Positions 5,095-28,816 of a DNA stretch of 64,000 nucleotides are shown one piece after another (positions within the stretch are counted from its first letter, which is position 1; the number at the start of each line of letters is the position of its first letter). The notes under the pieces are model-generated. The model did not search any database, was not told where the DNA came from, and saw only the letters and a program-made list of their open reading frames with translations. Made by a program: the position numbers and the translations under genes. This stretch comes from an uncultured Sphaerobacteraceae bacterium (GTDB lineage: Bacteria > Chloroflexota > Chloroflexia > Thermomicrobiales > UBA6265), in NCBI GenBank assembly GCA_964461025.1, contig CAYWSE010000001.1, positions 56,414 to 120,413 on the forward strand, given 5' to 3'.

Positions 5095-5166
5095 GAGCAA
5101 CCCGCGAACGCGTCTGCCAGCACCGAAGTCCCTCTTATCCAACGCCAAAACCATCACGAAACCGAT

Positions 5167-5196: not shown

Positions 5197-5379
5197 GGTC
5201 ACGTCTGCGCTGCATCTCCACTCGTTCTCGCTTTCTCCCGCGTCAACGGTCACTAAGCCCGTGATTTTCAATCGCGGGCGGATCAATTGGGCAACAGCGG
5301 CCAGCGCCAGCCCGCCGAACATGGCAGAATATGAACCCCGGCGCCGCGCCGGATTGACCAGATCAGGAGGTATGGGGAA

Positions 5380-6435: not shown

Positions 6436-6468
6436 ATTCCTTCCATGTTCGAAACAAGGAGTGATCAC

Positions 6469-7659: not shown

Positions 7660-7755
7660 ACCAATACCCCCGGTTTGACGCTAAGGGCCGCATACCGTAC
7701 GGTTGCCCCGCCATCTCGGCAAACGCGAACGAATCTGACAAGGGACTGAATCGAC

Positions 7756-8346: not shown

Positions 8347-8349
8347 GAG

Positions 8350-8365
8350 TGTTTCACGTGAAACA
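8350..8365. promoter_or_regulatory. perfect 16-bp palindrome TGTTTCACGTGAAACA (candidate protein-binding site)
   Basis: It is exactly self-complementary and lies 4 nt after the dcd stop. A near-identical copy lies at 8928-8943. Confidence 0.4.
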
Positions 8366-8476
8366 TGGCGATCGAGTCCGTGATTGGACAGTAGGAATCA
8401 CGAGCCGCATAATCGGCGATAGCAAACCGGACCGAATGCACTCCGGACAACACAACCCGGGAAGGTATGGAAAAAC

Positions 8477-8863
8477 GTGCCAGTCGAGACTCTGACCACT
8501 GTTCGCGACCGTATGCTCCCCATGATGGAGCTCACCGCCCGGGAATACGCCCACCGAATGCCGGCGGGTTATCCGAAACTGATCGACGAGCCAAACCGCG
8601 GTACCTTCGGCCTCCTCCTCGATCCAAGTCACGCCCTCCACATCGTCTCCGACGGTACAAATCTCTATGCCGAGATGACAGCCCGCTCATCCCGCACCGA
8701 CGCCCGAGCGAGCGCCGGTCGCGAAAAGTACTCCGGCATGCCATTCAACGACCGTCGCCTGATCTCCGAGGATGTTTCCGATCAGGAGTTGCGCAATCTC
8801 CTCGGTGAGTTGGTTTCCCGATACAACATGCTTCCGCGCATCATCCACATCACCGACACCTGA
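8477..8863 (+). CDS. hypothetical protein
   Basis: 128-aa ORF with coding-like GC3, followed by a strong terminator. No recognisable motif. Confidence 0.55.
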   Translation: MPVETLTTVRDRMLPMMELTAREYAHRMPAGYPKLIDEPNRGTFGLLLDPSHALHIVSDGTNLYAEMTARSSRTDARASAGREKYSGMPFNDRRLISEDVSDQELRNLLGELVSRYNMLPRIIHITDT

Positions 8864-8886
8864 GTTCTGCGACCCTCAATAGGACG

Positions 8887-8924
8887 GAAAAAGAGGAGTT
8901 CCGAATCGGAACTCCTCTTTTCTT
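8887..8924. terminator. bidirectional rho-independent terminator
   Basis: 11-bp stem GAGGAGTTCCG-AAT-CGGAACTCCTC. It is flanked by an A-run upstream and TTTTCTT downstream. It sits between convergent genes 8477..8863(+) and ndk(-). Confidence 0.75.
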
Positions 8925-8927
8925 GCA

Positions 8928-8943
8928 TGTTTCACGTGAAACG
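8928..8943. promoter_or_regulatory. second copy of the TGTTTCACGTGAAAC palindrome (15/16 match)
   Basis: The 14-bp core GTTTCACGTGAAAC is perfect at 8929-8942. Confidence 0.4.
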
Positions 8944-8969
8944 CGCAGCCAGCGCGCCTGGAGCGGGGA

Positions 8970-9449
8970 TCAGTCGTCGAGAATCCACCGATCGATATCG
9001 CGCGTATAGCTCGCCAGCGGTGTGGCGCCGAAAAAGATCCCAACCTCGCGCTCGGCGCTGGTCGCGCTATCCGACGCGTGAATCAGGTTTCTTCCTACGG
9101 TAAGACCATAATCCGCACGGATCGTCCCCGGCGCAGCCTCAGCTGGTCGCGTCGAACCGACCGTCGAACGCGTCACCGCAATCGCATCCGGACCCTCCAG
9201 CACCAGCGTTACGGAAGGCCCCGAGGTGATATAGCTCACCAGCGACCCATAAAACCCCTTGCCTTCATGCTCGGCATAGTGCTTCTTGGCCACCGCTTCC
9301 TCGATCGTGCCGATATTCAGCCCGACAATCCGCAAGCCGCGCTGCTCGAGCCGCTTGATAATTTCCCCGATCAATCCCCGCTGCACACCATCGGGTTTGA
9401 TGATCACGAGCGTTCGCTGCACATCCGCCACGGAGTATCCCTTCCTCAT
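8970..9449 (-). CDS. ndk: nucleoside diphosphate kinase
   Basis: RTLVIIKPDGVQRGLIGEII, GPSVTLVLEG and GRNLIHASDS (active-site His context). Confidence 0.92.
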   Translation of the reverse strand: MRKGYSVADVQRTLVIIKPDGVQRGLIGEIIKRLEQRGLRIVGLNIGTIEEAVAKKHYAEHEGKGFYGSLVSYITSGPSVTLVLEGPDAIAVTRSTVGSTRPAEAAPGTIRADYGLTVGRNLIHASDSATSAEREVGIFFGATPLASYTRDIDRWILDD

Positions 9450-9493
9450 CTACGGCCTGCTTCCAGTTGCAGACCTGCTATACGAACCCAATT

Positions 9494-9685
9494 CTACGTG
9501 CCCGGCTCTTCAGGCAACACCGCCCCTTTGGCTGCCGCCTTCGCTGCTTTCGCTGCTTCCTGCTCTCGCCGGTACTTCTTGTTGCGCTTCAGGGCCTGTT
9601 CCAGTGTCCACAATGTCACGCCAGTGGCGATGATCAGTGGAATCACGATCACCAGCACCAGCAACAACCATTCCGTACCAGACAT
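9494..9685 (-). CDS. small membrane protein (hypothetical)
   Basis: MSGTEWLLLVLVIVIPLIIATGVTLW forms a single TM helix, followed by a Lys/Ala-rich tail. The start is uncertain (9685 or 9697). Confidence 0.4.
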   Translation of the reverse strand: MSGTEWLLLVLVIVIPLIIATGVTLWTLEQALKRNKKYRREQEAAKAAKAAAKGAVLPEEPGT

Positions 9686-9786
9686 CGATACTCCCACACA
9701 CCGTCACTGCATCCGCTCGCTGCCAGGCAACCAGCGGCGACTCAAGCTACCATTTGCGTTGGCACTTCGTCGACAGGATTCTCGCG

Positions 9787-10089
9787 ATGTCCACACCCCA
9801 GCCGCAACCACGACCGCTCCTCATCGAAGAAGACGAATCGCTGATGCCGTCTCGCGGCTCGGTGATCGTCTTTCTCTCGATGTTCATCGCCACCACTGCG
9901 CTCATCGTCGTGGTGCTTGTCTGGGATCATTCCGCCCGGGCCGGACTCTTCCTCGGCGTCACCTTCTGGACCTGGCTCCTCGCCGCCATCTTCCTCGCTT
10001 TCGGCCCCGTCACCCTCGCCTGGCGCCTCCATCGCACCCGCTCCAAACGCAGCGACCTCGTCCGCTCCGAATGGATGCTTCCAGATTGA
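9787..10089 (+). CDS. membrane protein (hypothetical)
   Basis: ATG 9787. Two predicted TM helices (VIVFLSMFIATTALIVVVLVW, LFLGVTFWTWLLAAIFLAFGPV). Confidence 0.45.
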   Translation: MSTPQPQPRPLLIEEDESLMPSRGSVIVFLSMFIATTALIVVVLVWDHSARAGLFLGVTFWTWLLAAIFLAFGPVTLAWRLHRTRSKRSDLVRSEWMLPD

Positions 10090-10240
10090 CTCAGCGAGTC
10101 ATATTGACATAACTCTTTCTGCGTCGCTGATTCCGGGGGTATATCGCATAGTGGATAGCGCATCGGTTGGGGAAACGCCCACCATCCGCCACCGAATCTC
10201 CACTATCCACCCCGGCTCCCCATTTCCCGACCAACGGAAA

Positions 10241-10369
10241 TGTAGGCTCCGGCGCTCTGCCGGAGCAATCGACCGGAGGTCGATAACTGCGGCCACCTGC
10301 AACCAAGGTTGTGCTGGCGATGGAGTTGGTCGTGGTTTATGGCCCTCCGGCAGAGCGCCGGGGGTTACA
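10241..10369. mobile_element. REPIN/MITE-like element copy 1 (129 bp, ~25-bp terminal inverted repeats)
   Basis: The termini are TGTAGGCTCCGGCGCTCTGCCGGAG ... CTCCGGCAGAGCGCCGGGGGTTACA. The body is near-identical to 51479-51620. Confidence 0.7.
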
Positions 10370-10652
10370 TTCGCGGAGCCCCGGCCATTAGGGACGAACT
10401 AGCGGTGCGCCTAGAATAGTGTGTGACTCGGGAATCATCCGACCATCCACTATTTACCATCTACTATCTACCGCGGCACAAATGCCGAGCCCCCTGTTGC
10501 AGCAGGGGGCTCCGCGGGGGTCTTTCGCAACGATTGGCGAGGGAAGGGGGAAGCCGCTCGCTGCGTTGCTTCCATCCTACAGTTGCCCTCCAGTCAAGAT
10601 GCGTGCTGAATGGATAGAGCATTGGGTCCGTTCGGACCTGCCTTCCTCTATG

Positions 10653-11354
10653 TCAGCGAGTACCTCCGCCTTCATCGCTCGTGGCCGTCTTCCGCCGGTC
10701 GGCTTCATACGACCGCATCATCGCCAGCAACACCTGATCGATGAAGTCATCGATACCAATGAACAACCGCGCCGCCCGTCGCGCCGGCAGATTTTCCTCT
10801 TCGATCACACCCAGCACCGCCCGCACCGTCGGATACCGAAAATAGAGAAACGCTTCGATCGTTTCTCCCGGTCCCAGGCCTGCCTGTCCACCCGACCGGC
10901 CATAGTAGTCACCGATTTCCCGGCCCTCTGTCAGCAACTGGGCGCGCTCCCGCTGATGCCCCGTCGTCGCCGCATACCGAATCGCCAGATCGACCAGTCT
11001 TCTCCCCAGTCGCCGGTGTTCTTCCTGCTTTTCCGCTCCAAACGACTGGTACCACTGACGGCTGCGCGCTTCGTTCAGATAGTCGTCTTCATATGCCGAC
11101 AGCGAACGGTCCGTCAGTCGCTGCCGGCTCACTCTCGATTTCTGCGGTTTCTTGGCATCCCCGGCCACCAGCGAGCGCAAATCTTCTTCCAGGTAACGCC
11201 GGTGACCGCCCGGCGTCAAAAAGGCCGGTACGCGTCCCTCATCGGTCCACCGTCGCAATGTCGACTGATCGACGCCCAGAAACGCGCAGGCATCGCGGAT
11301 CGTCATCCACCGAGGTCCAGAGCCGGTCGATCCTCCCTGATCGCGTTCGCTCAT
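10653..11354 (-). CDS. HTH DNA-binding protein (excisionase/MerR-type N-terminus) with C-terminal sensor-like domain
   Basis: WMTIRDACAFLGVDQSTLRRWTDEGRVPAFLTPGGHRRY is a typical excisionase-family HTH. I could not assign the C-terminal ~170 aa. Confidence 0.65.
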   Translation of the reverse strand: MSERDQGGSTGSGPRWMTIRDACAFLGVDQSTLRRWTDEGRVPAFLTPGGHRRYLEEDLRSLVAGDAKKPQKSRVSRQRLTDRSLSAYEDDYLNEARSRQWYQSFGAEKQEEHRRLGRRLVDLAIRYAATTGHQRERAQLLTEGREIGDYYGRSGGQAGLGPGETIEAFLYFRYPTVRAVLGVIEEENLPARRAARLFIGIDDFIDQVLLAMMRSYEADRRKTATSDEGGGTR

Positions 11355-11416
11355 CCTCTCGCTCCGTCCAGGCCACGGCGATTTTCGCTCTCTCCATAGC
11401 CCATCGATCGGTCTCC

Positions 11417-12859: not shown

Positions 12860-13094
12860 GGGAGTCAGACCTTTTTTGGGTTACCACTTTGCCAGCCAAA
12901 GTGGATGCGGGGTCCCTGACCTTAGGTCTGTCACTCTACCACGCCAGACCCCGCTTTTGGTGAGACCAAAGGTGCAATTCCTCCAGTCTCAGTCTGGCGC
13001 ATCACCGGTCCCACCCCGATCCGGGAATCTGTCACAAAACCGTTGTTTCCTGTCACTGCACATGATAGAGTACCGGCGCGACAGGTTCACCACA

Positions 13095-13300
13095 TCATCT
13101 TGATGTGATGACGCAAGTGGGAATCCGGTGAAATGCCGGAGCTGCCCCGCAACGGTAACGAGGAACGACGCCGTCATTCGCACCGGGTCAGAACCCGGCA
13201 AGCGACGGTTGGTAGGAATCCCGGCTCTCCCGCCGGTCCGCCTCGCAGCCCGAACACCGGCCTGACGCTCGCGCCGCGAGGGCGCGATGTGAACCCGGGC
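13095..13300 (+). promoter_or_regulatory. cobalamin (B12) riboswitch in the nrdA leader
   Basis: The core GGGAATCCGGTGAAATGCCGGAGCTGCCCCGCAACGGTAA matches the conserved GGGAA..GGTGAAA..CC..GCCCCGCAAC.GTAA segment. A B12-box-like GCACCGGG...CCCGGCAAGCG follows. Boundaries are approximate. Confidence 0.78.
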
Positions 13301-13535
13301 TTCCGCGGGGAGGCCGGCGGGAATTGGTCCGGCGCACCCCCGGATTGCTTCTCTACCTTCCCCGGAAATATCGGCGCACACACGAGGGTGTGAGGGTTCC
13401 GCTCTGACGCTTCCCGCTGCGCGGCAGTCGAAGCGCTTTGACAGAACATGCCTCACCCCTCGACCTCGCAGTCGAACGCATCAGACACCCGCGTCGCGGC
13501 AATGTCATTGAAGTGGGGAGGTGGGAGGCGATTCC

Positions 13536-16385
13536 ATGGAAATCCGCGAACTCGGTACCGGCGACGCCGTGTCCGGAACACTCGACGAATCACCATTCGT
13601 GCTGAAAGCCGGAAATGTCACCAAGCGCGACGGACGCTCCGTCTCGCCCGACATCACCCGCATCGCCAACGCGATCGAAATGGCCTTTCGAGCCGAAGTC
13701 GGTGTGCCCTTTCCTGACCCGCTGCCCTCCGCCATTCACGACCGCACGCTGTCCATCACCAATCAGGTCGTCGAATCGCTGAACTGCCAGTTCGATTCCG
13801 CCCAACCACTTCATGTCGAAACGATTCAGGACGAAGTCGAACAGCAACTGATGGCTGCGGGCGCTTTCGGCGTTGCCAAACGCTACATTCTCTATCGACA
13901 GGCCCGCTCCCAGCTCCGCCAGGAAGCCGCGATCCGCGTCATCGACGATCGTGGCCAGGAATTGCAGCTGCACCGAGCCGTTATCCGCTCCTGGGTCGAT
14001 GAGGTCTGCGCCGGTGTCGACGAAGCCGTCTCGGCCCCCGCCATCGTCGAAGATGTCCTGAACGGCATCTATCCCGGTATCGCCCTCGCCGAGGTGCAGC
14101 AGCTCGTTCTTTACGCTGCCCGCACCCGCATCGAGCAGGACCCCGCCTGGTCGAGCGTCGCCGCTCGCGCTTTGTTGAGCACCCTCTACGCCGAAGTCTT
14201 CGGCCGCCGCGTCGCCATCGCCGACGCTCCCGGTCTCTATGCCGGCGCCTTTTCGTTCTATCTCCGCGACGCCGTCGCCGCCGAGCTCCTCAGCGAAGAG
14301 CTTCTCTCCTACGATCTCGATCTACTCGGCGCCGCGCTGCATCCGGAGCGCGATCTCGATTTCGCCTACCTCGGACTCCAGACCCTTTACGACCGCTACC
14401 TGATCCGCAACGGCGACCGGCGCATCGAGCTCCCCCAGATGCTCTGGATGCGCGTCGCCATGGGATTGGCCATGAATGAAGACGACGCCAACCAGCGCGC
14501 AATCGAGTTCTACGAGCTCCTCTCATCCCTTCGCTTCTGTTCTTCGACGCCGACGCTTTTCAACGCCGGCACCCGTCATCCGCAACTCTCCTCCTGTTAC
14601 CTCACGACCATCGGCGACGACCTCGACCAGATCTTCTCCGGCTTGCGTGACAACGCCCTCCTCTCCAAGTGGAGTGGGGGACTCGGCAACGACTGGACCC
14701 GCGTTCGCGCTCTCGGTAGTGGCATCAAGGGCACCAATGGCCGCAGCCAGGGCGTCGTTCCCTTCCTGAAGGTCGCCAACGACGCCGCGGTCGCGGTCAA
14801 CCAGGGCGGCAAACGCAAGGGCGCGGTCTGCGCCTATCTCGAGACCTGGCATCTCGATATCGAAGAGTTCCTCGAACTGCGCAAGAACACCGGCGACGAC
14901 CGCCGCCGCACCCACGATATGAACACCGCCAACTGGGTGCCCGATCTCTTTATGCAACGAGTCAAGGAGGACGGACCGTGGACCCTCTTCAGCCCCGACG
15001 ACGTCCCCGACCTGCACGATCTCTATGGCAAGGCCTTCGCCGCCCGCTACCAGGCCTGCGAAGCCGCAGCGGCTCGCGGTGAAATCCGTCTCAGCCGAAC
15101 GGTGCGCGCCGTCGATCTCTGGCGCAAGATGCTCACCGCTCTCTTCGAAACCGGACACCCCTGGATCACCTTCAAGGACCCCTCGAACGTCCGCACCCCG
15201 CAGGATCACACCGGCGTCGTCCACAGCTCGAATCTCTGCACCGAGATCCTTCTCAACACCAGCGACGACGAAGTTGCCGTCTGCAATCTCGGTTCGGTCA
15301 ATCTCGCTGCCCACATCGTTGATGGCCGCCTCGATCTCGAATCGCTGCACACCACCATCCGCACCGCCGTGCGCATGCTCGACAACGTCATCGACATCAA
15401 CTTCTACCCGATCCCGGAAGCGCGCAACGCCAACCTTCGCCACCGGCCAGTCGGACTTGGCCTCATGGGCTTCCAGGACACCCTTTACGCGCTTGGGTAT
15501 TCCTATGCCTCGGAGGAAGCAGTTGCCTTTGCCGGCCAAAGCATGGAAGCGATTGCCTGGTCCGCACTCCTCGCCTCATCCGAGCTCGCTGCCGAGCGTG
15601 GCGCCTATGAGTCCTATCGCGAATCGAAATGGGACCGCGGCCTTCTCCCTCAGGACACCATCCAGCTCCTCAGCGACGAGCGCGGCTCGCCAATCGACGT
15701 TCCCATCGAACCAACTCTCGATTGGGAGGTTGTGCGCCGTTCGATCCAGCGACATGGCATGCGCAACAGCAACGTCATGGCCATCGCCCCCACCGCGACG
15801 ATTTCCAACATCACCGGCGTCAGTCAGTCGATCGAACCCGCCTTCTCCAATCTCTACGTCAAGAGCAATCTCTCCGGCGAGTTCACCGTCGTCAACTAAT
15901 TCCTCGTCCGCGATTTGAAGGAGCGCGGTCTCTGGGACGCCGAGATGCTCGACGATCTCAAGCATCACGACGGCTCCCTTCAGGAGATCGACCGCATCCC
16001 GCAAGACCTCCGCGACCGCTACCTCACTGCCTTCGAAATCGACTCATCCTGGCTGCTCGCCGCCGCGGCCCGCCGCCAGGTCTGGATCGACATGGGCCAG
16101 TCGCTCAACCTCTATTCCGCCGGCGCCAGTGGTCGCAAGCTCAACGACATGTACCTCTCCGCCTGGGAACAGGGGCTGAAAACCACCTACTACCTGCGCA
16201 GCAACGGCGCGACCCAGGCCGAGAAGTCGACATTGGACATCAACGCCCGCGGTCTTCAACCCCGCTGGATGAAGTCCCGCAGCGCCTCCGCCGACGTCGT
16301 CATCGACCGCGAACCGACCATCGACGACTACCCCATCGGCGCCTCCTGCTCCCTCGACGGCAGCGACTGCGAGGCCTGCCAATGA
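13536..16385 (+). pseudogene. nrdA: class Ia ribonucleotide reductase alpha subunit interrupted by one in-frame TAA (15897-15899)
   Basis: ATP-cone-like N-terminus (VTKRDGRSVSPDITRIANAIE) and catalytic core (SSCYLTT, SNLCTEI, AIAPTATISNI). The sequence reads ...GEFTVVN-TAA-FLVRDLKERGLWD... and continues in the same frame to TTYYLRS and the C-terminal Cys-rich tail CSLDGSDCEAC. ATG 13536 has GGAGG 7 nt upstream. Confidence 0.88.
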
Positions 16386-16468
16386 ACGCTCTCAGCCGTA
16401 CCGGCAGACCTCCGCGCCCGCCCCATGCCTTCGTACCGGCGGACCTCCGCGTCCGCCTACCATCATCC

Positions 16469-16492
16469 CGTAGCGTCGCCATAAATGGCGAC
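16469..16492. repeat. REP-like hairpin, family A (CGTAGCGTCGCCATAAATGGCGAC)
   Basis: The same sequence occurs three times inside the RAYT gene at 55472-55639. This copy lies in the nrdA-nrdB spacer. Confidence 0.8.
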
Positions 16493-16533
16493 TTCCCACC
16501 GAAACGATGCTCTATCAACGAGGAATCCAATCA

Positions 16534-17963: not shown

Positions 17964-20255
17964 ATGGCACAAGCAACAATCGCCGGATATCCACGCATCG
18001 GCCGAAACCGCGAACTCAAATGGGCCACCGAGAAATACTGGTCAGGCAACATCGACGCCGCCACACTGCTCGAGACTGCCCGCGCTGTCCGCCACGACAA
18101 CTGGGCGATCCAATCCCGGGCCGGCATCGATCTCATTCCCATCAACGATTTCTCCCATTACGACCAGATGCTCGATATGGCCGCCCTCGTCGGCGCCGGT
18201 CTCGAGGACTACGTGGCGCCGGGCGCCATGGTCGACCTCGATGCCTATTTCCAGATGGCGCGCGGCAACGATGCCGGCGGACCTCCTCCCCTCGACATGA
18301 CAAAGTGGTTCGACACCAACTATCACTACCTGACACCGGTGATCGACGCCAACCAGCCCTTCCGGATCGCTTCTGAGAAACCCTTCACCGAGCTTTCCGA
18401 AGCAACTACCGCGGGTCATCGCGCCAAGGTCGTCCTGATTGGGCCAATCACCTTCCTGAAGCTGTCGAAAACCCGGCAGGAATCCGATCCCCTGGATCTC
18501 CTCGACGCCCTCCTGCCGGTCTATGCGGAGGTCATCGCCCGTCTCGCCGCCGGTGGCGCAGAGTGGATCGAGCTGCAGGAGCCGTCGCTCATTGCCGGAC
18601 ATGGCGCCGGACTCGAACCGCAAACCGAACGCGCCTACACCGCCATTGCCGCGGCAAAGGACGCTGCAAAACTGCTGCTTCACCTCCCGTTCGGCGACCC
18701 CGGCGACCTCCTCGACACCCTGATCGGACTACCGGTCGATGGGCTCGGCTTTGACTTCACCCGCAGCGACAATCTTGCCGCGCGAATTGCCGCGACCTCC
18801 TGGCCAGCAGACAAAACTCTTGCCGCCGGCGTCGTCGACGGTCGCAACATCTGGATCAACGATCTCGACAGCTCGTTCGCAACACTGCAACAGCTTACCT
18901 CCGTCACCGGCACTGACCAGCTGATAGTCACCTCGTCCTGTTCACTTCTCCACGTGCCGCATGACGTTCGTCTGGAGACCGGACTCGATCCAGAGCTGCT
19001 CTCCTGGTTGGCGTTTGCCGATCAGAAGCTCAACGAAATCTCCGCCCTCACCGCGGCGCTCAACAGTTCCCTCGAATCGGTTCCCGGATCAGATGCATAC
19101 CGCCGGGCGCGTGCATCCATGGCCAGTTCGCAGCGACGCCGCAACCCTGCCGTCCGCGAACGCATCAGCGCAGTTCACGACCAGCAGCGCCGCCGGTCGT
19201 CGCCATATGCGGCGCGACAGGCGATTCAGGCGACAGAACTCGGTCTGCCCCTGTTGCCAACCACGACCATCGGCTCCTTCCCACAAACAAACGATCTCCG
19301 CAAGGCACGTCGCCAGCTCGACGCCGGGACTCTCGGCCAGTCCGCCTACGACGAAATCATCGCCGCGTCGATCGCCACCACGATCGCCGAGCAGGAGAGC
19401 CTTGGTCTCGATGTCCTCGTTCATGGCGAACCCGAGCGCAACGACATGGTTCAGTACTTCGCCGAGCAGATGGAAGGATTCGCCTTCACCCGGAACGGCT
19501 GGGTACAGAGCTACGGCACGCGATGCGTCCGCCCGCCCATCATCTTCGGCGACGTCTCCCGTCCTGCCGCCATCTCGGTCCATTGGTCGCGATATGCCCA
19601 ATCGCTGACCAGCAAACCGGTCAAGGGCATGCTCACCGGTCCGGTCACCATGCTCAACTGGTCCTTCGTCCGCGACGATCAACCCCGCGCCGAAACCTGC
19701 GCGCAGATCGCTCTCGCCATCCGCGACGAAGTCGACGATCTCGTCGCCGCCGGTCTCAAAATCGTCCAGATCGACGAACCAGCCCTGCGCGAAGGGCTTC
19801 CGATCGACCACGCTCATTGGACGGCCTACCTCGAATGGGCAACCGCCTGCTTCCGGCTCGCCTCATCCAGCGCGCCAGACCTTGTCCAGATTCATACGCA
19901 TATGTGCTACAGCGATTTCGGCGACATCATCGCGGCAATCGACAACCTCGATGCCGATGTCCTCTCGATCGAAAACACCCGCTCCGGCGACGAGATGCTT
20001 GCCGTCTTCAGTGACTTCGGCTACGAACGAGGCGTTGGACCGGGCGTCTACGATGTCCACTCGCCACATGTTCCGTCAGTGGATGAAGTCACAACATCGA
20101 TTCAGTCACTGACCCACCAGCTCGATGCTCGCCAGATCTGGGTCAATCCCGATTGTGGCCTCAAAACCCGCAAACCGGAAGAAGCGCACGCGTCGCTCCG
20201 CAACATGGTCACCGCCGCCAACGCGCTCCGCCCAACCATCACGACTGATTCGTAG
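17964..20255 (+). CDS. metE: cobalamin-independent methionine synthase (5-methyltetrahydropteroyltriglutamate-homocysteine methyltransferase)
   Basis: MAQATIAGYPRIGRNRELKWATEKYW, GSFPQTNDLRKARR, HTHMCYSDF and WVNPDCGLKTR. Confidence 0.96.
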   Translation: MAQATIAGYPRIGRNRELKWATEKYWSGNIDAATLLETARAVRHDNWAIQSRAGIDLIPINDFSHYDQMLDMAALVGAGLEDYVAPGAMVDLDAYFQMARGNDAGGPPPLDMTKWFDTNYHYLTPVIDANQPFRIASEKPFTELSEATTAGHRAKVVLIGPITFLKLSKTRQESDPLDLLDALLPVYAEVIARLAAGGAEWIELQEPSLIAGHGAGLEPQTERAYTAIAAAKDAAKLLLHLPFGDPGDLLDTLIGLPVDGLGFDFTRSDNLAARIAATSWPADKTLAAGVVDGRNIWINDLDSSFATLQQLTSVTGTDQLIVTSSCSLLHVPHDVRLETGLDPELLSWLAFADQKLNEISALTAALNSSLESVPGSDAYRRARASMASSQRRRNPAVRERISAVHDQQRRRSSPYAARQAIQATELGLPLLPTTTIGSFPQTNDLRKARRQLDAGTLGQSAYDEIIAASIATTIAEQESLGLDVLVHGEPERNDMVQYFAEQMEGFAFTRNGWVQSYGTRCVRPPIIFGDVSRPAAISVHWSRYAQSLTSKPVKGMLTGPVTMLNWSFVRDDQPRAETCAQIALAIRDEVDDLVAAGLKIVQIDEPALREGLPIDHAHWTAYLEWATACFRLASSSAPDLVQIHTHMCYSDFGDIIAAIDNLDADVLSIENTRSGDEMLAVFSDFGYERGVGPGVYDVHSPHVPSVDEVTTSIQSLTHQLDARQIWVNPDCGLKTRKPEEAHASLRNMVTAANALRPTITTDS

Positions 20256-20338
20256 ACCGAGAGTCGTAGATCGTGGTTCGCAGTCCGAGGTCCGGAGTTC
20301 GTGGGTCATGAGTCGTGGGCCGGTGTTCGTTGCTCGCG
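20248..20338. repeat. degenerate heptanucleotide tandem array, 13 units (consensus GNYCGNR)
   Basis: The triplet TCG/CCG recurs every 7 nt: atTCGta gaCCGag agTCGta gaTCGtg gtTCGca gtCCGag gtCCGga gtTCGtg ggTCAtg agTCGtg ggCCGgt gtTCGtt gcTCGcg. The array begins 5 nt before the metE stop. Confidence 0.8.
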
Positions 20339-20347
20339 ACGGTCGGA

Positions 20348-20445
20348 TGTAGCTCCCGGCGCTCTGCCGGGGGATGGCCCGCAGGGCCATAGACTTCCAG
20401 GGGCATAGCGACCCATGCGAGGCCACCAAGGTCGTAGGTGGCATC
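20348..20445. repeat. degenerate relative of the REPIN-like element plus ATGGCCC-GCA-GGGCCAT palindrome
   Basis: TGTAGCTCCCGGCGCTCTGCCGGG matches the left terminus of the 10241 and 51479 elements. The remainder has diverged. Confidence 0.5.
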
Positions 20446-20466
20446 TTGTTATCGCCCTGAGGTTGT

Positions 20467-20515
20467 CGTAGTTAGTAATCCGTAGTCAACAGATCACCAT
20501 CCACCATCCACCAAA
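20467..20515. repeat. composite heptamer array (CGTAGTY-type then CACCATC-type units)
   Basis: The units read cgtagtt agtaatc cgtagtc aacagat caccatc caccatc caccaaa. The array at 28685-28747 has the same architecture. Confidence 0.75.
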
Positions 20516-20521
20516 AATACA

Positions 20522-20548
20522 TTGACCCGGCCATGATGGCCGGGTCAA
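20522..20548 (-). terminator. hairpin, probable terminator for the TerC-family gene
   Basis: 11-bp stem TTGACCCGGCC-ATGAT-GGCCGGGTCAA. On the minus strand it is followed by ATGTATTTTT. Confidence 0.45.
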
Positions 20549-20674
20549 TGCGGGAAGGGGAGGGTGGAGCGTGTGCGGCGCTCCACTGGGCTTGGGAGAG
20601 AGATCAGTATGTACTGATGCTCTCGACCCTATATACGCCGCCCCTTTCAGTTTGGTTTTATGACTGGATTTGCG

Positions 20675-21370
20675 TCAGAGTGGCGCGGTTTCACCGGTAT
20701 TAAAACCTGCTTCGTGGAGCGCCTGCCGGTGCAGCCGCCACCCATACAGGCACACCAGAGCCGCCAGCGTCAATGCGACGACCGCCACCACACCCGGCGG
20801 AGCCGCATAGATCTCATGTACGCGTTTGTCGTGGAAGAACATCCTCACCGCCGTCACCACCAGAATACTCGCCCCCACATAGACGAGAATCGGCAACCGG
20901 CCCATCAACCGCGCCACAATCGAGCTGCCGAACAGCAGTATCGGTATCGAGAGCCCCAGCCCAAAGAGCAGCAACCACAAATCCCCATGCGCGGCCCCTC
21001 CCACGGCGAGGATATTGTCCAGACTCATCACCACGTCGGCCAGAATGATCGTTTGAATCGCCTCCCTCAGGTTCGAGGCTTCCGTCACATGCTCATCATG
21101 CGAAATCGGTCGCACCAGCTTGAAGGCAATGTAGAGCAGCAGGAATGCTCCGACCGCCTGCAAAAGCGGAATGTCGAGCAACAGCGCTGCGAGAACTGTA
21201 AAAAGTACCCGCAGCGCCACCGCGCCGACGCCGCCCAGCACGATCGCCCGTCTCCGGGCTTCAGGTGGCAACGACCGCGACGCCATACCGATGACCACCG
21301 CGTTGTCCCCCGACAACACGAGATCGATCACGATAATCGCGCCAAGTTTGGTAAGAAGATCAAGATCCAT
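20675..21370 (-). CDS. TerC-family integral membrane protein
   Basis: Duplicated motifs DLVLSGDNAVVIG and DVVMSLDNILAVG, with multiple TM helices. Confidence 0.85.
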   Translation of the reverse strand: MDLDLLTKLGAIIVIDLVLSGDNAVVIGMASRSLPPEARRRAIVLGGVGAVALRVLFTVLAALLLDIPLLQAVGAFLLLYIAFKLVRPISHDEHVTEASNLREAIQTIILADVVMSLDNILAVGGAAHGDLWLLLFGLGLSIPILLFGSSIVARLMGRLPILVYVGASILVVTAVRMFFHDKRVHEIYAAPPGVVAVVALTLAALVCLYGWRLHRQALHEAGFNTGETAPL

Positions 21371-21377
21371 AGTTACT

Positions 21378-21398
21378 TAGGCAATAGGCAATAGGCAG
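21378..21398. repeat. heptamer array TAGGCAA x3
   Basis: The units read taggcaa taggcaa taggcag. The array lies 7 nt upstream of the TerC start codon and is the inverse complement of the 21485-21554 array. Confidence 0.85.
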
Positions 21399-21484
21399 AA
21401 GTAATCGATATCTGTCAGCTGCCAACTGGATCGACATCTCCCACCTCCGGACCTCAGTCTGGGATGACCAGTACCCGGGTACTT

Positions 21485-21554
21485 TTGCCTATTGCCCATT
21501 GCCTATTGCCTATTGCCTATTGCCTATTGCCTATTGCCTATTGCCCAGTGCCTA
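21485..21554. repeat. heptamer array TTGCCTA x10
   Basis: There are 8 TTGCCTA/TTGCCCA-type units plus GTGCCTA in perfect register. The last unit contains the ctaB stop codon (cta at 21552-21554, minus strand). Confidence 0.9.
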
Positions 21555-22523
21555 GCCCCCCAACACCATCCGGTCAACCACCATCGCCGCGAATATGAGG
21601 GCCAGGTACCAGAGTGAATAGAAGAAGGTCAAACGCGCAAAATGCTTCGAGCCGGTCCGGTAGAGCTGAACGACCAGCAGCAGAAAAATCGCGTTCAGCA
21701 CGATCGCTGACACGAAGTAAATCTCGCCCAGCCCAAACGGTGTCAGGAGAAACGACACCGCTACCATCAGCAACGTGTACAACAGAATCTGTCGCCGTGT
21801 TTCCATCTCGCCGGCGACGACTGGCAACATCGGAACATCCGCCCGCCCGTAGTCACCTCGTTTCAACAGCGCCAGAGCCCACGAATGCGGGGGCGTCCAG
21901 TAATAGATCAGCGCGAACATCAATACCGGAGCAATCCCCACACTCCCCGACACCGCAGCCCACCCGACCACTGGCGGCATTGCCCCTGCGGCGCCGCCGA
22001 TGACGATATTCTGCGTGGTGCGGCGTTTCAGATAATAGGTGTACACAACGACGTAGTAGAAGCACCCCACCAGCGCCAGCGCCGCAGCCAGCCAGTTCGT
22101 GAAGATCCCCAGAATCAGCGTCGACAGAATTGTCAGGACGATGCCAAAAATCAGGACATTCTGGGCTGGAATCTTGCCGGACGCCGATGGCCGGTGCTTG
22201 GTGCGCGCCATCAGCTTATCGATATCCCGGTCGATGTAGCAGTTCAGCACATTCGCGCCGCCCGCTGAAAGGACACCGCCGATCAGCCCCCAGAAGACGA
22301 TCGAGAAGTCCGGGAACCCCTTCGCAGCGCACATCATCCCGGCCAGCATCGTCACCAGCAGCAGGCTGAGAATGCCCGGCTTGGTTAACGTAACATAATC
22401 TGAAATCGTTTCGAGAACGCCACTCCGCTGCACAAGCGCCGTTTCGGCAGGAGGAGCCTGCTCAGGAACCGCTGCCTGTTGCACCGGTCTCTCGAACGCT
22501 GGTGCCGAACTGTTCGATGTCAT
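21552..22523 (-). CDS. ctaB: protoheme IX farnesyltransferase (heme O synthase)
   Basis: [36 protein letters not shown] and [13 protein letters not shown]. The start is taken at MTSNSS (22523). The longer ORF to 22661 is unlikely. Confidence 0.85.
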
Positions 22524-22666
22524 TGAGCGAATCCGGAATCGATCGGGGAGCAGGATCAGCAATCGCTTCTTCATCTCGACAGAGAAACGATCGCCCCTCA
22601 TTCTAACCCGCCCCACGCCATCCGGCGAAATCCACCACCAGCCGTTCCCTCCGACCCGCAATCCTT

Positions 22667-24204: not shown

Positions 24205-24389
24205 AAACCGTACACATCGACCCTCAACTGCCCAACCGTACGCATCGACCTCATCCGCCAACCGTACGCATCGACCTCCGTGTCGATGCCCTACCACCCG
24301 AGGCCATACGCATTGACCCTCACCAGCCCAACGTGCGCATCGATCTCATCCGCCAACCGTACGCATCGACCTCCGTGTCGATGCCCTAC
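24205..24389. repeat. REP-like array, family B (two full hairpins plus four half-sites)
   Basis: Full GTACGCATCGACCTCCGTGTCGATGCCCTAC hairpins lie at 24264-24294 and 24359-24389. CGTACGCATCGACCTC-type half-sites lie between them. Confidence 0.88.
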
Positions 24390-24412
24390 CACCCAGTCCA
24401 TAATCCCCCTCT

Positions 24413-24891
24413 ATGGACGACCTCCTCAACCACCCCCGCGACAAGCGCCGCCTCCCCGACTGTGCATACGCGGTCCCCGGCTCCGCCTGGCACATCACCA
24501 TCGGCACACACGATCCAGGCTCCCGCCCGCTCTCCGAACCTAATCTCGCGCTTCACCTGGGCAGTTCACTCGCCGAATCCGCACGCTATCACAGCGCCAT
24601 CCTGCACCTGTGGTGCGTCATGCCCACGCACGCCCACGTCATCATCGAAGTCCGCGAGATCGATCTCCGCACCCTCGTCAAATCAATGAAAATGTGGTCA
24701 ACGCGTGTCTGGTGGAAACTCGGTGGGGAGGGGTACTCTGGCACAAGAGCTTCTACGATCACGGCATCCGGGGACAACGCGACTTCGACGCCACGATCCG
24801 CTACATCCTCGAAAATCCCGTCAAAGAGGGACTCGTCGAAACATGGGAAGATTTTCCCGCTCTGGGTGGCGCGATCCTGTCAGGTGAGTAA
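24413..24891 (+). pseudogene. IS200-like/REP-associated tyrosine transposase (RAYT-like), -1 frameshift in a G-run near 24730-24733
   Basis: The N-terminal frame carries the HUH motif (CVMPTHAHVIIEV). The C-terminal part continues in another frame (VLWHKSFYDHGIRGQRDFDATIRYILENPVKEGLV) with the catalytic-Tyr context. The junction lies in GGTGGGGAGGGG. Confidence 0.72.
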
Positions 24892-24909
24892 CCGCAGCAA
24901 GCGGCAGCT

Positions 24910-25051
24910 ATGGCCCTGCGGGGCCATCCATCGACACGGAGGTCGATGGCTACGGAGAAAACGCGCGTACGCATCGACCTCCGCCGTCTCACCGTACGCA
25001 TCGACCTCCGCCGCCTGACCGTACGCATCGACCTCCGTGTCGATGCCCTAC
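24910..25051. repeat. REP-like array, family B, downstream flank of the RAYT pseudogene
   Basis: ATGGCCC-TGCG-GGGCCAT palindrome at 24910-24927. Inverted-orientation hairpin at 24928-24953. Two half-sites. A full hairpin at 25021-25051. Confidence 0.85.
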
Positions 25052-25060
25052 GCCTGGGTT

Positions 25061-25429: not shown

Positions 25430-25514
25430 TGCATCCTCCTTCGCTCAATACTGACTGGAACGACGATCCGTAGTGGACAGCACCTCTCACCCCGAAGGGG
25501 TTTTGTGGCCTCAG

Positions 25515-25537
25515 CCCGGTGTTTCAACACCGGATGC
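25515..25537. repeat. REP-like hairpin, family C (CCCGGTGTTTCAACACCGGATGC)
   Basis: 6-bp stem CCGGTG/CACCGG. A second copy with similar flanks lies at 26083-26105. Confidence 0.7.
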
Positions 25538-26004: not shown

Positions 26005-26078
26005 GTTGCTCCTCACGTTGATCAAACGGAATCCTGATGGAATCACCACGACATCGGCCCGGCAAGGGCTTTGTGCCG

Positions 26079-26918
26079 TTAACCCGGTGATTCAACACCG
26101 GATGCGCTGCCCGACTTCAGGTCCAGACGAATCCCGAACCATTCCTCCAGCGCCCCCAACAGCGCCGCCGGGCCCTCCAGCGCCGTCTCCTCCCGCTCGC
26201 CGTCTCGCGTCAGAATCAGCGACTCACTCGTCACCGATACTCTCCCGCCTGGCACCAGCTTCGAACAGATCACCCCTTGTGTGAAATGCGAATCCGCCGA
26301 CGTCTGATGAAACTGGCTCCGCTCTTCATAATCCACCATCGATCTTGCCCGCAAATCGAGGTCGTAGTGCATTACCCAATCCGTATCCAAAGCGCTTCGC
26401 CGTGCAATCGACCACTGCAAATCCGGATCATCCAGCCGTTCGATCCGGTACGCAATCCCCGATCGCCCATCGGCCGCGAGCTCACCCTCTGCCAGCGGCA
26501 ATGGTCCTGCTGGCGTCTCCCGGCCAAACCCCACGTCGGCCAGCCATTCGCTCCCATCCTCCGGCGCGACCACCTTCAACACCAGATGATCGAACGGCAC
26601 GATGCGCTCTCCAGCCTCCGGCATCCAGGTCGCATACCCCATCGTCACCGCGAACCCCAGTGCCTCGAGCACCGTCGCCAACAATCCGTTCTGCTCGAAA
26701 CAGAACCCGCCCCGACTCTGCCGCACCAACTTCTCAAGAATCGCCTCAGGCGTCAGCACGATCGGGCGCTTCAACAACGCGATATCGAGGTTCTCGAACG
26801 GTATCGCCAGCTGATGCAACCAGCTGATCTCCCGCAACACCGCCACACGTGGCACCAGCGGACCTGCATATCCAATACGCTCGGCATACGCCCGCAGCTC
26901 ATCCGCCCGCATCATCAT
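26079..26918 (-). CDS. arylamine N-acetyltransferase
   Basis: LHQLAIPFENLDI and RGGFCFEQNGLL (catalytic Cys context). The last 8 codons and the stop are encoded by a family C REP. Confidence 0.85.
   Translation of the reverse strand: MMMRADELRAYAERIGYAGPLVPRVAVLREISWLHQLAIPFENLDIALLKRPIVLTPEAILEKLVRQSRGGFCFEQNGLLATVLEALGFAVTMGYATWMPEAGERIVPFDHLVLKVVAPEDGSEWLADVGFGRETPAGPLPLAEGELAADGRSGIAYRIERLDDPDLQWSIARRSALDTDWVMHYDLDLRARSMVDYEERSQFHQTSADSHFTQGVICSKLVPGGRVSVTSESLILTRDGEREETALEGPAALLGALEEWFGIRLDLKSGSASGVESPG
26083..26105. repeat. REP-like hairpin, family C, copy 2 (inside the NAT 3' end)
   Basis: CCCGGTGATTCAACACCGGATGC, with one mismatch to copy 1. Confidence 0.7.
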
Positions 26919-27461: not shown

Positions 27462-28703
27462 ATGAGCGGCCGTTCTTCCTTCTATGGCTGGAAGATCGTC
27501 GCCGCCCTGGCCATCACAGAACCAGTCACCTGGGGCATCCTCTACTACGCCTTTTCAGTTTTCATCGAACCGACAAGCGCCGAGTTCGGCTGGAGCCGCA
27601 ATCAGCTCACCGCCGCATTCTCGATCGCTCTTGTCGCGTCCGGCATTGCAGCCGTCCCGGTCGGAAGATGGCTCGACGCCCACGGCCCACGATCGCTCAT
27701 GACGGTCGGCTCAGTCGCTGCGTCACTCCTCGTCGTCGCCTGGTCTCGGGTCGAAAGCTACCCAGTCTTCGTCCTCGTCTGGATCGGACTCGGGCTCTGT
27801 ATGGCCGCCACGTTCTACGAACCCGCCTTCGCCGCCATCACTACCTGGTTCCAAAGATATCGTTCCCGAGCTCTCACCGTCGTCACTTTCGGCGGCGGTT
27901 TCGCCAGTGTCATCTTTATCCCGCTCGCCGCCTGGCTTGTCGACCAACAGGGGTGGCGCGACGCTCTCCTCATTCTCGCCGTCATCCTCGCTGTCACCAC
28001 CATCCCCATCCACGCCATCCTGCTCCGGCGCGACCCCGCTCAGTTCGGCCAATGCCCGGATGGCGAATGCACAAGCAACGAACGAACCGCCCGTCGACGC
28101 TCAAGGGAGCCAATCGACTTCCGATCCGCCCTCCGCAGCCGCTCTTTTCGGTGGCTCTCACTCGCCTTCGGGCTCACCATGTTCGTCAATGTCGCCACCA
28201 CAGTCCTCCTGATCCCGCTCCTCATCGATCGTGGTGAATCGGCCCGATTCGCTGCGTCCGCTGCCGCTGCTATCGGACTCCTCGCGCTCCCGGGCCGTCT
28301 CATCTTCACCCCACTGGGCGACTGGCTCCCGCCCTGGACCGTTCCCGCCGCGATCTTCGTCACCCAGGCGATCGCCCTCGCCGTTCTCGCGGTCACGACA
28401 TCGCACGCCGGCGTCTGGATCTTTGTCGTCCTCTTCGGCGCTGGATTTGGAGCGATCACACCGGCACGGGCCACACTCGTTGCCGATCTCTACGGCACCG
28501 TCGCGTTCGCCTCGATCAGCGGCGTTCTCGCCCTCATCGTCGCCTTTTCGCGCGCTGCTGGTCCCATTGGCGGCAGTCTCATCGAATCGGCCACCACCGG
28601 TGACCGCCCATTCCTCCTGATCCTCGCCACGCTTTCCCTCGCCGCCGCTGCCGCTGTCTACCTCGCGACACGCGACCCGGACCTCGTAGTCCGTAGTCCG
28701 TAG
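27462..28703 (+). CDS. MFS transporter
   Basis: About 12 hydrophobic helices and the loop motif PVGRWLDAHGPR. Confidence 0.85.
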   Translation: MSGRSSFYGWKIVAALAITEPVTWGILYYAFSVFIEPTSAEFGWSRNQLTAAFSIALVASGIAAVPVGRWLDAHGPRSLMTVGSVAASLLVVAWSRVESYPVFVLVWIGLGLCMAATFYEPAFAAITTWFQRYRSRALTVVTFGGGFASVIFIPLAAWLVDQQGWRDALLILAVILAVTTIPIHAILLRRDPAQFGQCPDGECTSNERTARRRSREPIDFRSALRSRSFRWLSLAFGLTMFVNVATTVLLIPLLIDRGESARFAASAAAAIGLLALPGRLIFTPLGDWLPPWTVPAAIFVTQAIALAVLAVTTSHAGVWIFVVLFGAGFGAITPARATLVADLYGTVAFASISGVLALIVAFSRAAGPIGGSLIESATTGDRPFLLILATLSLAAAAAVYLATRDPDLVVRSP

Positions 28704-28747
28704 TCCTTCATTAACCATTAACCATCTACCACCCACCATCCACAAAT
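28685..28747. repeat. composite heptamer array, 9 units (CGTAGTC x3 then CACCATC-type)
   Basis: The units read cgtagtc cgtagtc cgtagtc cttcatt aaccatt aaccatc taccacc caccatc cacaaat. The first units encode the last MFS codons and its TAG stop. Confidence 0.85.
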
Positions 28748-28816
28748 AAGTGAATAATGGACACGACCAGCAGCAGCGATGCCGCCGGTCCATCGAAAGC
28801 GGAACTGGAGGTCTCG

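Follow-up and report, generated by a model that had tools for sequence, protein, structure and literature searches.

The intergenic spacers of a 64-kb stretch of DNA from an uncultured bacterium of the Thermomicrobiales (positions 56,414 to 120,413 of contig CAYWSE010000001.1; this whole stretch is hereafter the window) contain degenerate tandem arrays of 7-nt units, among them a 13-unit array that takes in the stop codon of the metE gene. These arrays represent a known kind of bacterial simple-sequence repeat (SSR) in a newly seen lineage and not a new class of element. It appears reasonably probable that they are long heptanucleotide SSRs akin to the short tandemly repeated repetitive (STRR) sequences of other bacteria, located in extragenic space and shaped by slippage together with selection on placement, and that the paired form, in which an array is accompanied by its inverted complement, acts as an RNA stem-loop in the manner of a repetitive extragenic palindrome (REP).

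Heptanucleotide periodicity and its location

Period 7 is the only non-codon period in excess in the window. Lag scans yielded seven runs at lag 7, as compared to 0-2 at lags 4-6 and 8-13, and the segments with at least 60% lag-7 identity comprised 458 intergenic nt, whereas the corresponding value for lags 8-11 was 0-36 nt. Such segments cover 7.2% of the intergenic nucleotides but only 0.7% of those in open reading frames (ORFs), and several of the matches counted under ORFs actually sit at gene edges. The Tandem Repeats Finder (TRF) gives period-7 or period-14 rows at eight sites of the window. The first-pass annotation of this DNA had described the repeats as degenerate tandem heptanucleotide arrays and had set an excess over periods 6 and 8 as a test; the shuffle, binomial and lag tests concur that the arrays are not due to chance, and the excess holds within the 64 kb. 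The density of lag-7 runs is 10.9 per 100 kb in the window versus 2.2 in 1.33 Mb of unrelated bacterial DNA, namely, loci that encode a ~50%-identical MetE in unrelated phyla, among the matches listed. These control loci are themselves rich in period 7, with 2.2 runs per 100 kb versus 0.3-0.5 for periods 4, 5, 8, 10 and 11.

Arrays are present in seven of the 35 spacers of at least 40 nt, and all ten arrays considered fall within these seven. The array bases amount to 447 of 5908 intergenic nt (~7.6%) and to 18-75% of each array-bearing spacer, so that the statement that the spacers are "filled" with arrays was too strong: 80% of the spacers have none. Every array-bearing spacer lies downstream of at least one gene; none of the ~9 divergent spacers carries an array, a depletion that is not significant alone (P = 0.15). 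Thus, the arrays display the features of long heptanucleotide SSRs in the sense of Mrazek (2007), namely, tandem units, an excess of period 7, a mostly noncoding location and variation at the level of the locus.

The metE-terC spacer

The array first noticed lies between metE and the oppositely oriented terC gene, where the following features were delineated:

17964-20255, plus strand: metE, with the stop codon TAG at 20253-20255
20250-20338, plus strand: decayed 13-unit heptamer array, consensus YCGTRGT (CGTAGTC family), defined by column profile and lag-7 identity
20344-20466, no strand assigned: truncated copy of REP-C, a REP-like inverted doublet, with the left arm GGATGTAGCTCCCGGCGCTCTGCCGG kept and the right arm missing
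20467-20487, plus strand: three CGTAGTC-family units, CGTAGTT AGTAATC CGTAGTC, oriented as in the first block
20495-20513, plus strand: CACCATC x2.7 (CCATCYA family), called by TRF with 100% matches and abutting a minus-strand terminator
20517-20640, minus strand: conserved structured block downstream of terC, with three hairpins, not a repeat
20675-21370, minus strand: terC (Pfam TerC)

From position 20250 onward, the first block reads tcgtaga ccgagag tcgtaga tcgtggt tcgcagt ccgaggt ccggagt tcgtggg tcatgag tcgtggg ccggtgt tcgttgc tcgcgac, with the metE stop codon inside the first unit. The 13 consecutive units with fixed columns that had been reported are indeed there, although they start at 20250 and not at 20248: T or C occupies column 3 and C column 4 in 13 of 13 units, followed by G in column 5 in 12 of 13. 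The lag-7 identity of this block is 46/84 (0.55), versus 0.14-0.29 at the other lags within 3-12; its lag-7 score was reached by none of 2000 shuffles, and a score of 46 is unmatched by any stretch of 84 comparisons in the 64 kb at lags 5, 6 and 8-11 (maxima 37-44). TRF reads the block as two copies of period 28 (20249-20304). The consensus YCGTRGT represents CCGTAGT in decayed form, and the latter is the same periodic sequence as CGTAGTC. In the closest relatives, loci L081 and L082, the metE stop codon is contained in an array of (CGTAGTC)x4, with which the block of the window is aligned.

The second block (20467-20515) reads as originally written, with a lag-7 identity of 0.60 that was matched in 0 of 2000 shuffles; within it, TRF calls only the CACCATC units. 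The two blocks are separated by the REP-C copy, which is absent from the same spacer in L081 and L082. Since the units at 20467-20487 share the orientation of the first block, they are probably the far end of one long array that was split by the REP-C insertion. The first block has no hairpin potential (z = -0.24) and no inverted partner array. Being unpaired, mutated and split by a REP-like insertion, the metE array of the window is most likely a decaying remnant that has lost the capacity to form a hairpin.

The A-run at 20513-20519, at the end of the second block, is the T-tract of a terminator hairpin on the minus strand. Positions 20517-20600 (~85 nt) are 100% identical to L081 and L082, although MetE is only 79% identical, and the minus-strand fold of 20517-20640 (-68.5 kcal/mol, z = -7.6) comprises three hairpins, the last of which is an intrinsic terminator (stem 20519-20551 followed by ATTTTT). 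This block is a candidate small RNA or structured 3' untranslated region (UTR) of terC; a TATATA box is located ~110 nt upstream of it. A terminator scan of 20000-21700 returned a strong match at 20519-20551 and two weaker ones inside terC, and none of the arrays had a terminator-like site. In 20200-21600, Rfam gave no match at E <= 1, either for the arrays or for the conserved block, and no riboswitch match was obtained upstream of metE.

Other arrays of the window and their unit families

The first-pass annotation had also held that the same period and related units recur across the window, and this is the case, with both orientations represented:

3781-3818, plus strand: (CGGACYN)x5.4, CGTAGTC family in reverse-complement orientation, found by TRF and lag scan
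10138-10215, plus strand: weak decayed period-7 stretch of CGCATAG-like and then CACCATC-like units, marginal, left of the REP-C copy at 10238-10373
10436-10472, plus strand: CCATCCA CTATTTA CCATCTA CTATCTA (CCATCYA family, period 7/14); the ATG at 10482 lies 9 nt past its end
21378-21397, minus strand: (TTGCCTA)x2.9, inverted partner of 21485-21554, ending 7 nt before the terC start
21485-21554, minus strand: (TAGGCAA)x10, TRF score 119, overlapping the TAG stop codon of UbiA (21552-21554)
21552-22661, minus strand: ubiA (Pfam UbiA)
28685-28706, plus strand: (CGTAGTC)x3.1; its third unit supplies the TAG (28701-28703) that ends an MFS gene
28709-28743, plus strand: CATTAAC CATTAAC CATCTAC CACCCAC CATCCAC (CCATCYA family), filling the spacer to 13 nt before the ATG at 28757
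59357-59398, plus strand: decayed CGGACYN-type array in complement orientation, lag-7 identity 0.51, reached by 3 of 2000 shuffles
60377-60420, minus strand: (GGCAATG/GGCAAAR)x6 (GGCAA family), TRF score 67, grouping with 21485-21554

The sites differ in strength. The arrays at 3781-3818, 21378-21397, 21485-21554, 28685-28743 and 60377-60420 are clear (P from 1e-6 to 1e-25); the one at 10425-10472, for which the TRF row is 10442-10472, is moderate; by the shuffles, 59357-59398 and 10125-10215 (lag-7 identity 0.39, reached by 5 of 2000) are marginal.

Three unit families can be distinguished, CGTAGTC, TAGGCAA/TTGCCTA (GGCAA) and CCATCYA, and each keeps a fixed orientation relative to genes. The CGTAGTC family is found at stop codons or past them on the sense strand (metE, MFS), and its complement CGGACTA before a start codon: the 3781-3818 array, which is complementary to 20272-20304 and 28685-28706, begins 42 nt past the stop of an arginase-family gene and ends 14 nt before a TTG start at 3833 that carries an AAGGA Shine-Dalgarno (SD) motif, the frame 3833-4273 having the GC pattern of coding sequence and, hence, being a real gene. 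Similarly, the GGCAA family is found on the sense strand from or after stop codons (UbiA, permease), and its complement TTGCCTA before the start of terC. The two arrays of the terC-ubiA spacer are 100% complementary, such that a long-range stem could close the whole spacer (z = -3.5). The second GGCAA-family array, at 60377-60420, lies 10 nt past the stop of an ABC permease gene, between convergent genes and beside a GC-rich hairpin (60345-60370); its (GGGCAAT)x4 portion at 60390-60420 (minus strand) is the only array in the window that fits the G-quadruplex motif G3N1-7 x4. Of the three CCATCYA sites, two (28709-28743 and 10436-10472) closely precede the next start codon; no plus-strand gene follows the remaining one (20495-20513).

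The 59357-59398 array is flanked by plus-strand genes, 58277-59266 on one side and the DUF6325 gene, which begins at 59512, on the other. A minus-strand ORF in this region, 59455-60156, was rejected as spurious in favor of the plus-strand genes for DUF6325 (59512-59955) and a SHOCT-domain protein (59983-60318).

The same spacers in related genomes

The spacers of the window were compared with those of L081 and L082 (79% MetE identity, the closest relatives), L203 (62%), L204, L205 and L206. Where the window has a decayed array of 13 units at the 3' end of metE, L081 and L082 have the stop codon within (CGTAGTC)x4, a 14-nt loop and an inverted (CGGACTA)x4, with one point change between the two loci. 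The predicted fold of this hairpin in L081 is highly stable (-51.6 kcal/mol, z = -7.95), and the hairpin is followed by CTCTAAAAAC. L081 also carries a CGTAGTC array 11 nt after its ribonucleotide reductase gene.

Between the UbiA stop and the terC start, there are 10 units of TAGGCAA in the window, four of GCAAAGG in L082, approximately one unit in L081 and seven of NRGGCAA in L203; units with the GGCAA core directly follow the UbiA stop codon in L081, L082 and L203. L081 and L082 encode identical MetE, yet their ubiA-terC spacers differ by the array and by a 233-nt segment. Thus, the comparison of array lengths that had been suggested for strains, made here for relatives, reveals arrays of the same family at both the metE and the ubiA-terC spacers, with different copy numbers and unit variants; the arrays, therefore, are old at some positions and subject to rapid turnover in detail. 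Further inverted pairs were found in L203 and L205 (AGGCAAT/CCTKTTG, CCGGAGG/CTCCGG and GGGTGAT/ATCACCC), and no arrays in L204 and L206, in 22 kb each.

Paired arrays in metagenomic and viral sequences

An exact search of metagenome contigs for (CGTAGTC)x3 retrieved at least 120 loci; what is said of these loci here and below holds among the matches listed. In the high-GC loci, a (GACTACG)n array very often comes 17-63 nt after (CGTAGTC)n, and the order 5'-(CGTAGTC)n-loop-(GACTACG)n-3' prevails over the opposite one by 24 to 0 with the strict pattern and by ~40 to 1 with consensus units (P about 1e-7 to 4e-11). Since the loops and flanks of these hairpins are unrelated between loci, the paired arrays are not a copied element. 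Many of them lie within ~20 nt of both flanking ORFs, and, where ORFs are present on both sides (20 pairs), 16 pairs are located between co-directional genes, four between convergent ones and none between divergent ones. The contigs that could be placed belong mostly to the Blastocatellia; specifically, exact protein look-ups assigned L090, L093, L098, L101 and L112 to the Blastocatellia/Pyrinomonadaceae (Acidobacteriota) and L100 to a cluster labelled Planctomycetota.

A further case is that of two orthologous loci of the Blastocatellia type, L190 (1586-3147) and L193 (5012-5829), in which three consecutive intercistronic spacers contain one heptamer hairpin each, built from different units, GTTTCTG, GTTCCGG and CGTAGTC, with a stop codon right before the 5' arm and the SD motif and start codon right after the 3' arm. 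Where the two loci differ, pairing is kept via G-U, a weak indication as it comes from two sequences only. Among 34 inverted pairs built from units other than CGTAGTC, G outnumbers C in the 5' arm of 29 and is outnumbered by it in four; the G-rich arm comes first across families.

Heptamer hairpins occur in a virus as well. The 58% GC viral contig L216 (IMG/VR IMGVR_UViG_3300037400_001146; 13 kb) contains eight inverted heptamer pairs at 465-11373, TAGGCAA/CTAATGC and GTAGGAG/CTACCTC, each just upstream of an AAGGAG ribosome-binding site; TAGGCAA is the unit of a family also present in the window. A phage origin of the arrays was considered and rejected: (CGTAGTC)x3 was found in one and (TAGGCAA)x3 in 14 of ~2.9 million viral contigs, and since so few viral contigs carry them, the arrays are chiefly chromosomal.

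These observations bear on the explanation that the arrays are a pure mutational by-product, generated by the neutral slippage of a polymerase with a preference for 7-nt units and surviving only where harmless, with no function at the DNA or RNA level whether paired or not. Most arrays of the window are short, decayed and unpaired, the richness of the control genomes in period 7 fits a general mutational bias, and L204 and L206 have no arrays in the regions compared. Neutrality, however, does not predict the fixed order of the pairs, the excess of G over C in the 5' arm across families, the retention of the GGCAA core after the UbiA stop at 62-79% MetE identity, or a virus with eight such hairpins before ribosome-binding sites. 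We therefore consider this explanation somewhat unlikely.

Mobile elements as a proposed source of the arrays

The first-pass annotation had proposed that the arrays belong to a dispersed composite element, with CGTAGTC units followed by CACCATC units and an A-rich end, copied to several spacers. Indeed, 20467-20519 and 28685-28756 share this order and are alignable through their repeat parts, and 10138-10215 is loosely similar. However, the order occurs only twice, both times in the window, and in none of four relatives, ~120 metagenome loci and 80 control loci; the sites have neither terminal inverted repeats nor target duplications, and no unique sequence in common of the kind that would mark a MITE (a transposable element of the miniature inverted-repeat type); the A-rich end at 20513-20519 belongs to the minus-strand terminator, which is kept in L081 and L082 without the CACCATC units; and CGTAGTC arrays elsewhere have unrelated flanks and adjoin many different array families, such as GGTATTC, GGACCAA, GGAAGCT and others. 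The order of CGTAGTC and then CCATCYA units is better explained by position, as CGTAGTC hugs stop codons and CCATCYA precedes the next start. Hence, the composite element, as initially conceived, is highly improbable.

A connection to REPs deserves separate consideration because the window contains three REP-like families (REP-A, REP-B and REP-C), each consisting of a GTA[GC] head followed by a hairpin. The third of these comprises the following copies:

10238-10373 and 51476-51612: full copies of REP-C, a 135-bp element with 27-nt terminal inverted arms AATGTAGGCTCCGGCGCTCTGCCGGAG
20344-20466: the truncated copy of the metE-terC spacer

Each REP-C arm is a GTAG head with a short hairpin, so that the element resembles a REPIN (REP doublet forming a hairpin), and two of the three copies (10238 and 20344) lie within heptamer arrays. 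Two genes resemble those of REP-associated tyrosine transposases (RAYTs). One, which we take to be RAYT-like from the motifs known for these enzymes, is split by a frameshift (24206-25053; also 2700-2840): its N-terminal frame (24413-~24700) has the HUH motif MPTHAHVII and its C-terminal frame (24610-24891) has WHKSFYDHGIRGQRDFDATIRYILENPV, the ORF 24413-25018 gave no Pfam match, and the gene is flanked on both sides by tandem and inverted 26-27-nt REP-like units CCGTACGCATCGACCTCCGTGTCGATGC. The other, ORF 55170-55907, probably is a truncated second RAYT, as judged from its last 50 residues, the only part that matches Pfam Y1_Tnp (PF01797, E 4.9e-5, profile positions 66-121). Its middle consists of copies of a second REP-like element, CCGTAGCGTCGCCATTTATGGCGAC, which forms a perfect 25-nt inverted doublet at 55542-55566/55615-55639 and is also found at 5155-5192, at 16468-16493 and within the 233-nt insertion of L082. 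A further dispersed intergenic element, 48 nt in length, is present in two copies that are 81% identical (25490-25537 and 26058-26105) and contains the hairpin CCGGTGTTTCAACACCGG.

Could the CGTAGTC arrays then be reiterated "GTAG heads" made or spread by a RAYT, with the paired form being a REPIN-like mobile hairpin? Apart from the co-occurrence of RAYT-like genes, REP-like families and REP-C insertions in the window, the head of REP-B, CCGTAGC, is 1 nt off the unit CCGTAGT, REP doublets and heptamer hairpins alike have GTAG at their outer 5' end, and the arrays, like REPs, avoid divergent spacers. Nevertheless, the repeats that flank the two RAYT-like genes are REP-A and REP-B and not heptamer arrays, the 640 kb surrounding 120 CGTAGTC arrays of the metagenome loci contained no RAYT motif, the hairpin loops and flanks are not conserved, TAGGCAA, GTTTCTG and GTTCCGG form the same type of hairpin without GTAG, and GT[AG]G is estimated to occur by chance in ~1 of 10 heptamer units. 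Furthermore, a REP is a dispersed, conserved imperfect palindrome of ~20-40 nt, whereas the metE block has no hairpin potential and the paired arrays vary in arm, loop and flank. On balance, we regard a RAYT origin as very improbable, if an interesting lead.

Relation to known heptanucleotide repeats

Heptanucleotide repeats were reported by Mrazek et al. (2007, PNAS 104:8472), as related in the papers that cite this work (PMC4679880, PMC4692102), to be the most abundant class of long SSRs in most prokaryotic genomes, including Burkholderia, Actinobacteria and Xanthomonas, and contact of the polymerase with 7 nt was proposed to favor slippage. By these accounts, those SSRs resemble the arrays of the window in consisting of head-to-tail 7-nt units, in showing an excess of period 7, in their extragenic location, in the lineage-specificity of units and in the proposed origin by slippage. 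Among the closest counterparts are the GGGAATC repeats of Xanthomonas and the GGGGAYT repeats of Nostoc described by Rehm et al. (2015; PMC4692102). In Xanthomonas, GGGAATC forms 70-75 convergent inverted pairs, is under-represented between divergent ORFs, and, in two species, occupies the same intergenic positions but differs in length (PMC4692102). The arrays described here are similar in their high-GC host, overlap with stop codons, inverted pairs with the G-rich arm first, rarity between divergent ORFs, and intergenic positions that are shared by related species while length and sequence differ. The difference lies in the units: those of Xanthomonas and Nostoc have a G3 or G4 tract and form G-quadruplexes, whereas CGTAGTC, TAGGCAA and CCATCYA have no G3 tract. 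The view that nothing equivalent had been described for high-GC genomes is, accordingly, contradicted by the Xanthomonas work (PMC4692102) and by what is quoted of Mrazek et al.: the excess of heptanucleotides in many bacteria including high-GC Xanthomonas, the overlap with stop codons, the inverted pairs and the scarcity between divergent genes are already published.

The likeness to the STRR sequences of heterocystous cyanobacteria that had been pointed out is supported as to kind: like the arrays here, STRRs are intergenic tandem heptamers with several families per genome and no understood function. The host differs, being a member of the Thermomicrobiales and not a cyanobacterium. The STRR units, reportedly described by Mazel et al. 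in 1990, are CCCCAGT, TTGGTCA and CAACAGT, and tandem dimers of these were found on neither strand of the window.

In marine Beggiatoaceae, cyanobacteria and Bacteroidetes, TAACTGA arrays are located just upstream of start codons (MacGregor 2015; PMC4679880). This unit, which is found in unrelated phyla, contains stop codons in all frames in one orientation, limiting overlap with coding ends, and its arrays comprise 169 direct sets and a single indirect one and are predicted to be unstructured (PMC4679880). The arrays here differ in the unit and in the presence of inverted pairs, which TAACTGA almost never forms, as well as in predicted structure. They resemble TAACTGA in the stop codons of the unit and in sharing one unit among unrelated phyla, and the CCATCYA arrays at 28709-28743 and 10436-10472, like TAACTGA, lie a few nucleotides upstream of starts (28757 and 10482, 9-13 nt past the arrays) with no clear SD motif.

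The TAACTGA repeats, located upstream of starts that have no canonical sites, were proposed to bind S1, Csp or CsrA (PMC4679880), and the same possibility can be envisaged here, with the arrays serving as multivalent DNA or RNA sites in a 7-nt register and the C/A-rich CCATCYA possibly providing leaders or 3' UTRs with sites of the S1, Csp or Rho type. The position of the CCATCYA arrays fits this idea, as does the conservation of the GGCAA core while the other positions of the unit drift. However, the many unit families, which differ even between neighboring spacers of one operon, are hard to reconcile with a single protein; we find this possibility quite improbable.

The literature searched, in which the survey of Mrazek et al. 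was represented by the papers citing it, contained no description of heptamer arrays in Chloroflexota or Thermomicrobiales or of the unit CGTAGTC, the literal CGTAGTC array having no relevant match; none of the published heptamer units is found in tandem in the window. The phenomenon as such has been published for Xanthomonas, cyanobacteria and Beggiatoaceae.

A proposed role for slippage, selection and the paired stem

The scenario that we favor, that of STRR-like SSRs under selection on placement, can be depicted as follows. Replication slippage would make the arrays expand, contract and decay. As 7 is no multiple of 3, selection would remove them from coding sequence. At the 3' ends of genes, however, they would be tolerated when the unit carries a stop codon: within three units, TAG appears in all three frames, so that a change in copy number alters but few C-terminal residues. 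When an array and its complement are included in one transcript, as might be the case in the terC-ubiA spacer of the window, at the metE 3' end of the nearest relative and at ~40 metagenome loci, they would pair to give a stem of 20-60 bp, located past the stop codon and ahead of the next ribosome-binding site. Such a stem could work like a REP: as a stem-loop at a 3' end or between cistrons, it would stop exonucleases or serve as a substrate of RNase III, and uncouple the cistrons.

By analogy with REPs, then, a stem-loop at 3' ends and between cistrons is the most likely role of the paired form. With REPs, bacterial interspersed mosaic elements (BIMEs) and REPINs, it shares the extragenic location, the position at gene 3' ends, the preference for co-directional and convergent spacers, the hairpin and the outer 5' GTAG. 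The distinction is that REPs are unique imperfect palindromes copied genome-wide, whereas the stems considered here are tandem arrays that vary locally and have loops and flanks of unrelated sequence.

Several points weigh against this scenario. The paired hairpins have no U-tract and thus are not classical intrinsic terminators; intrinsic terminators have a U-tract after the stem, and the heptamer hairpin of L081 has CTCTAAAAAC instead. In five of the seven array-bearing spacers of the window, the arrays are unpaired and show no predicted structure (z = -0.24, +0.61, -1.86), and so a hairpin function is inapplicable to most of the arrays seen there. The presence of a stop codon in the 5' arm was rejected as a general rule, given that, among the pairs other than CGTAGTC, it is found in the 5' arm only in eight cases and in the 3' arm only in five. 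The preponderance of G over C in the 5' arm, which is general across families, is not explained by the scenario, and neither is the strict polarity of the pairs. The data on the genome itself come from one 64-kb window, the gene calls in the fetched loci are crude, being the longest ORFs, and the RNA-level role of the paired arrays is inferred.

An alternative, which we deem unlikely, is that the heptamer-array hairpins are not slippage debris but a distinct functional class of intercistronic or 3'-end RNA or DNA element that is found across phyla. Such a class would be characterized by a fixed geometry, with a G-rich, often stop-bearing 5' arm and its complement just before the next ribosome-binding site, and its units, CGTAGTC and TAGGCAA, would recur in Chloroflexota, Acidobacteriota (Blastocatellia), a Planctomycetota-labelled metagenome-assembled genome (MAG) and a virus. 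The symmetric polarity would then result from selection by both flanking genes or from a dedicated generating mechanism, e.g., one in which repeats are added at the two 3' ends of a break that is then joined, or one that relies on an HUH/RAYT-type enzyme.

Genomic setting of the arrays

The nearest relatives of MetE are labelled Thermomicrobiales or Chloroflexota, the window shows synteny with contigs of Thermomicrobiales MAGs, and the host genome is described as that of a soil-type member of the Chloroflexota (Thermomicrobiales). The GC content of the window is ~60%; that of Xanthomonas is ~65%. The gene order metE, terC (minus), ubiA (minus) and thioredoxin/NHL is common to the window and L081/L082, and Pfam also confirms the MFS, glyoxalase and ABC-permease genes that adjoin other arrays. 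Elsewhere in the window, a cobalamin riboswitch (77 bits; 13066-13279, plus strand) is located upstream of the gene for the large subunit of ribonucleotide reductase (13521-15899), a class I-type enzyme with ATP-cone and RNR domains; the minus-strand ORF that overlaps the riboswitch (12989-13456) is probably spurious.

Implications

For annotation, the arrays are of modest importance: they mark the ends of genes and explain odd C-terminal extensions, as in the MFS gene, which reads through two units before its stop codon; they are, furthermore, hot spots of strain-level variation and of assembly error, and they share the extragenic niche with three REP-like families. More broadly, the fixed order of the pairs, the excess of G over C in the 5' arm across unrelated unit families, the unit family kept in orthologous spacers and the use of such hairpins by a virus offer a testable handle on why bacteria favor 7-nt repeats and on whether the arrays act in any way.

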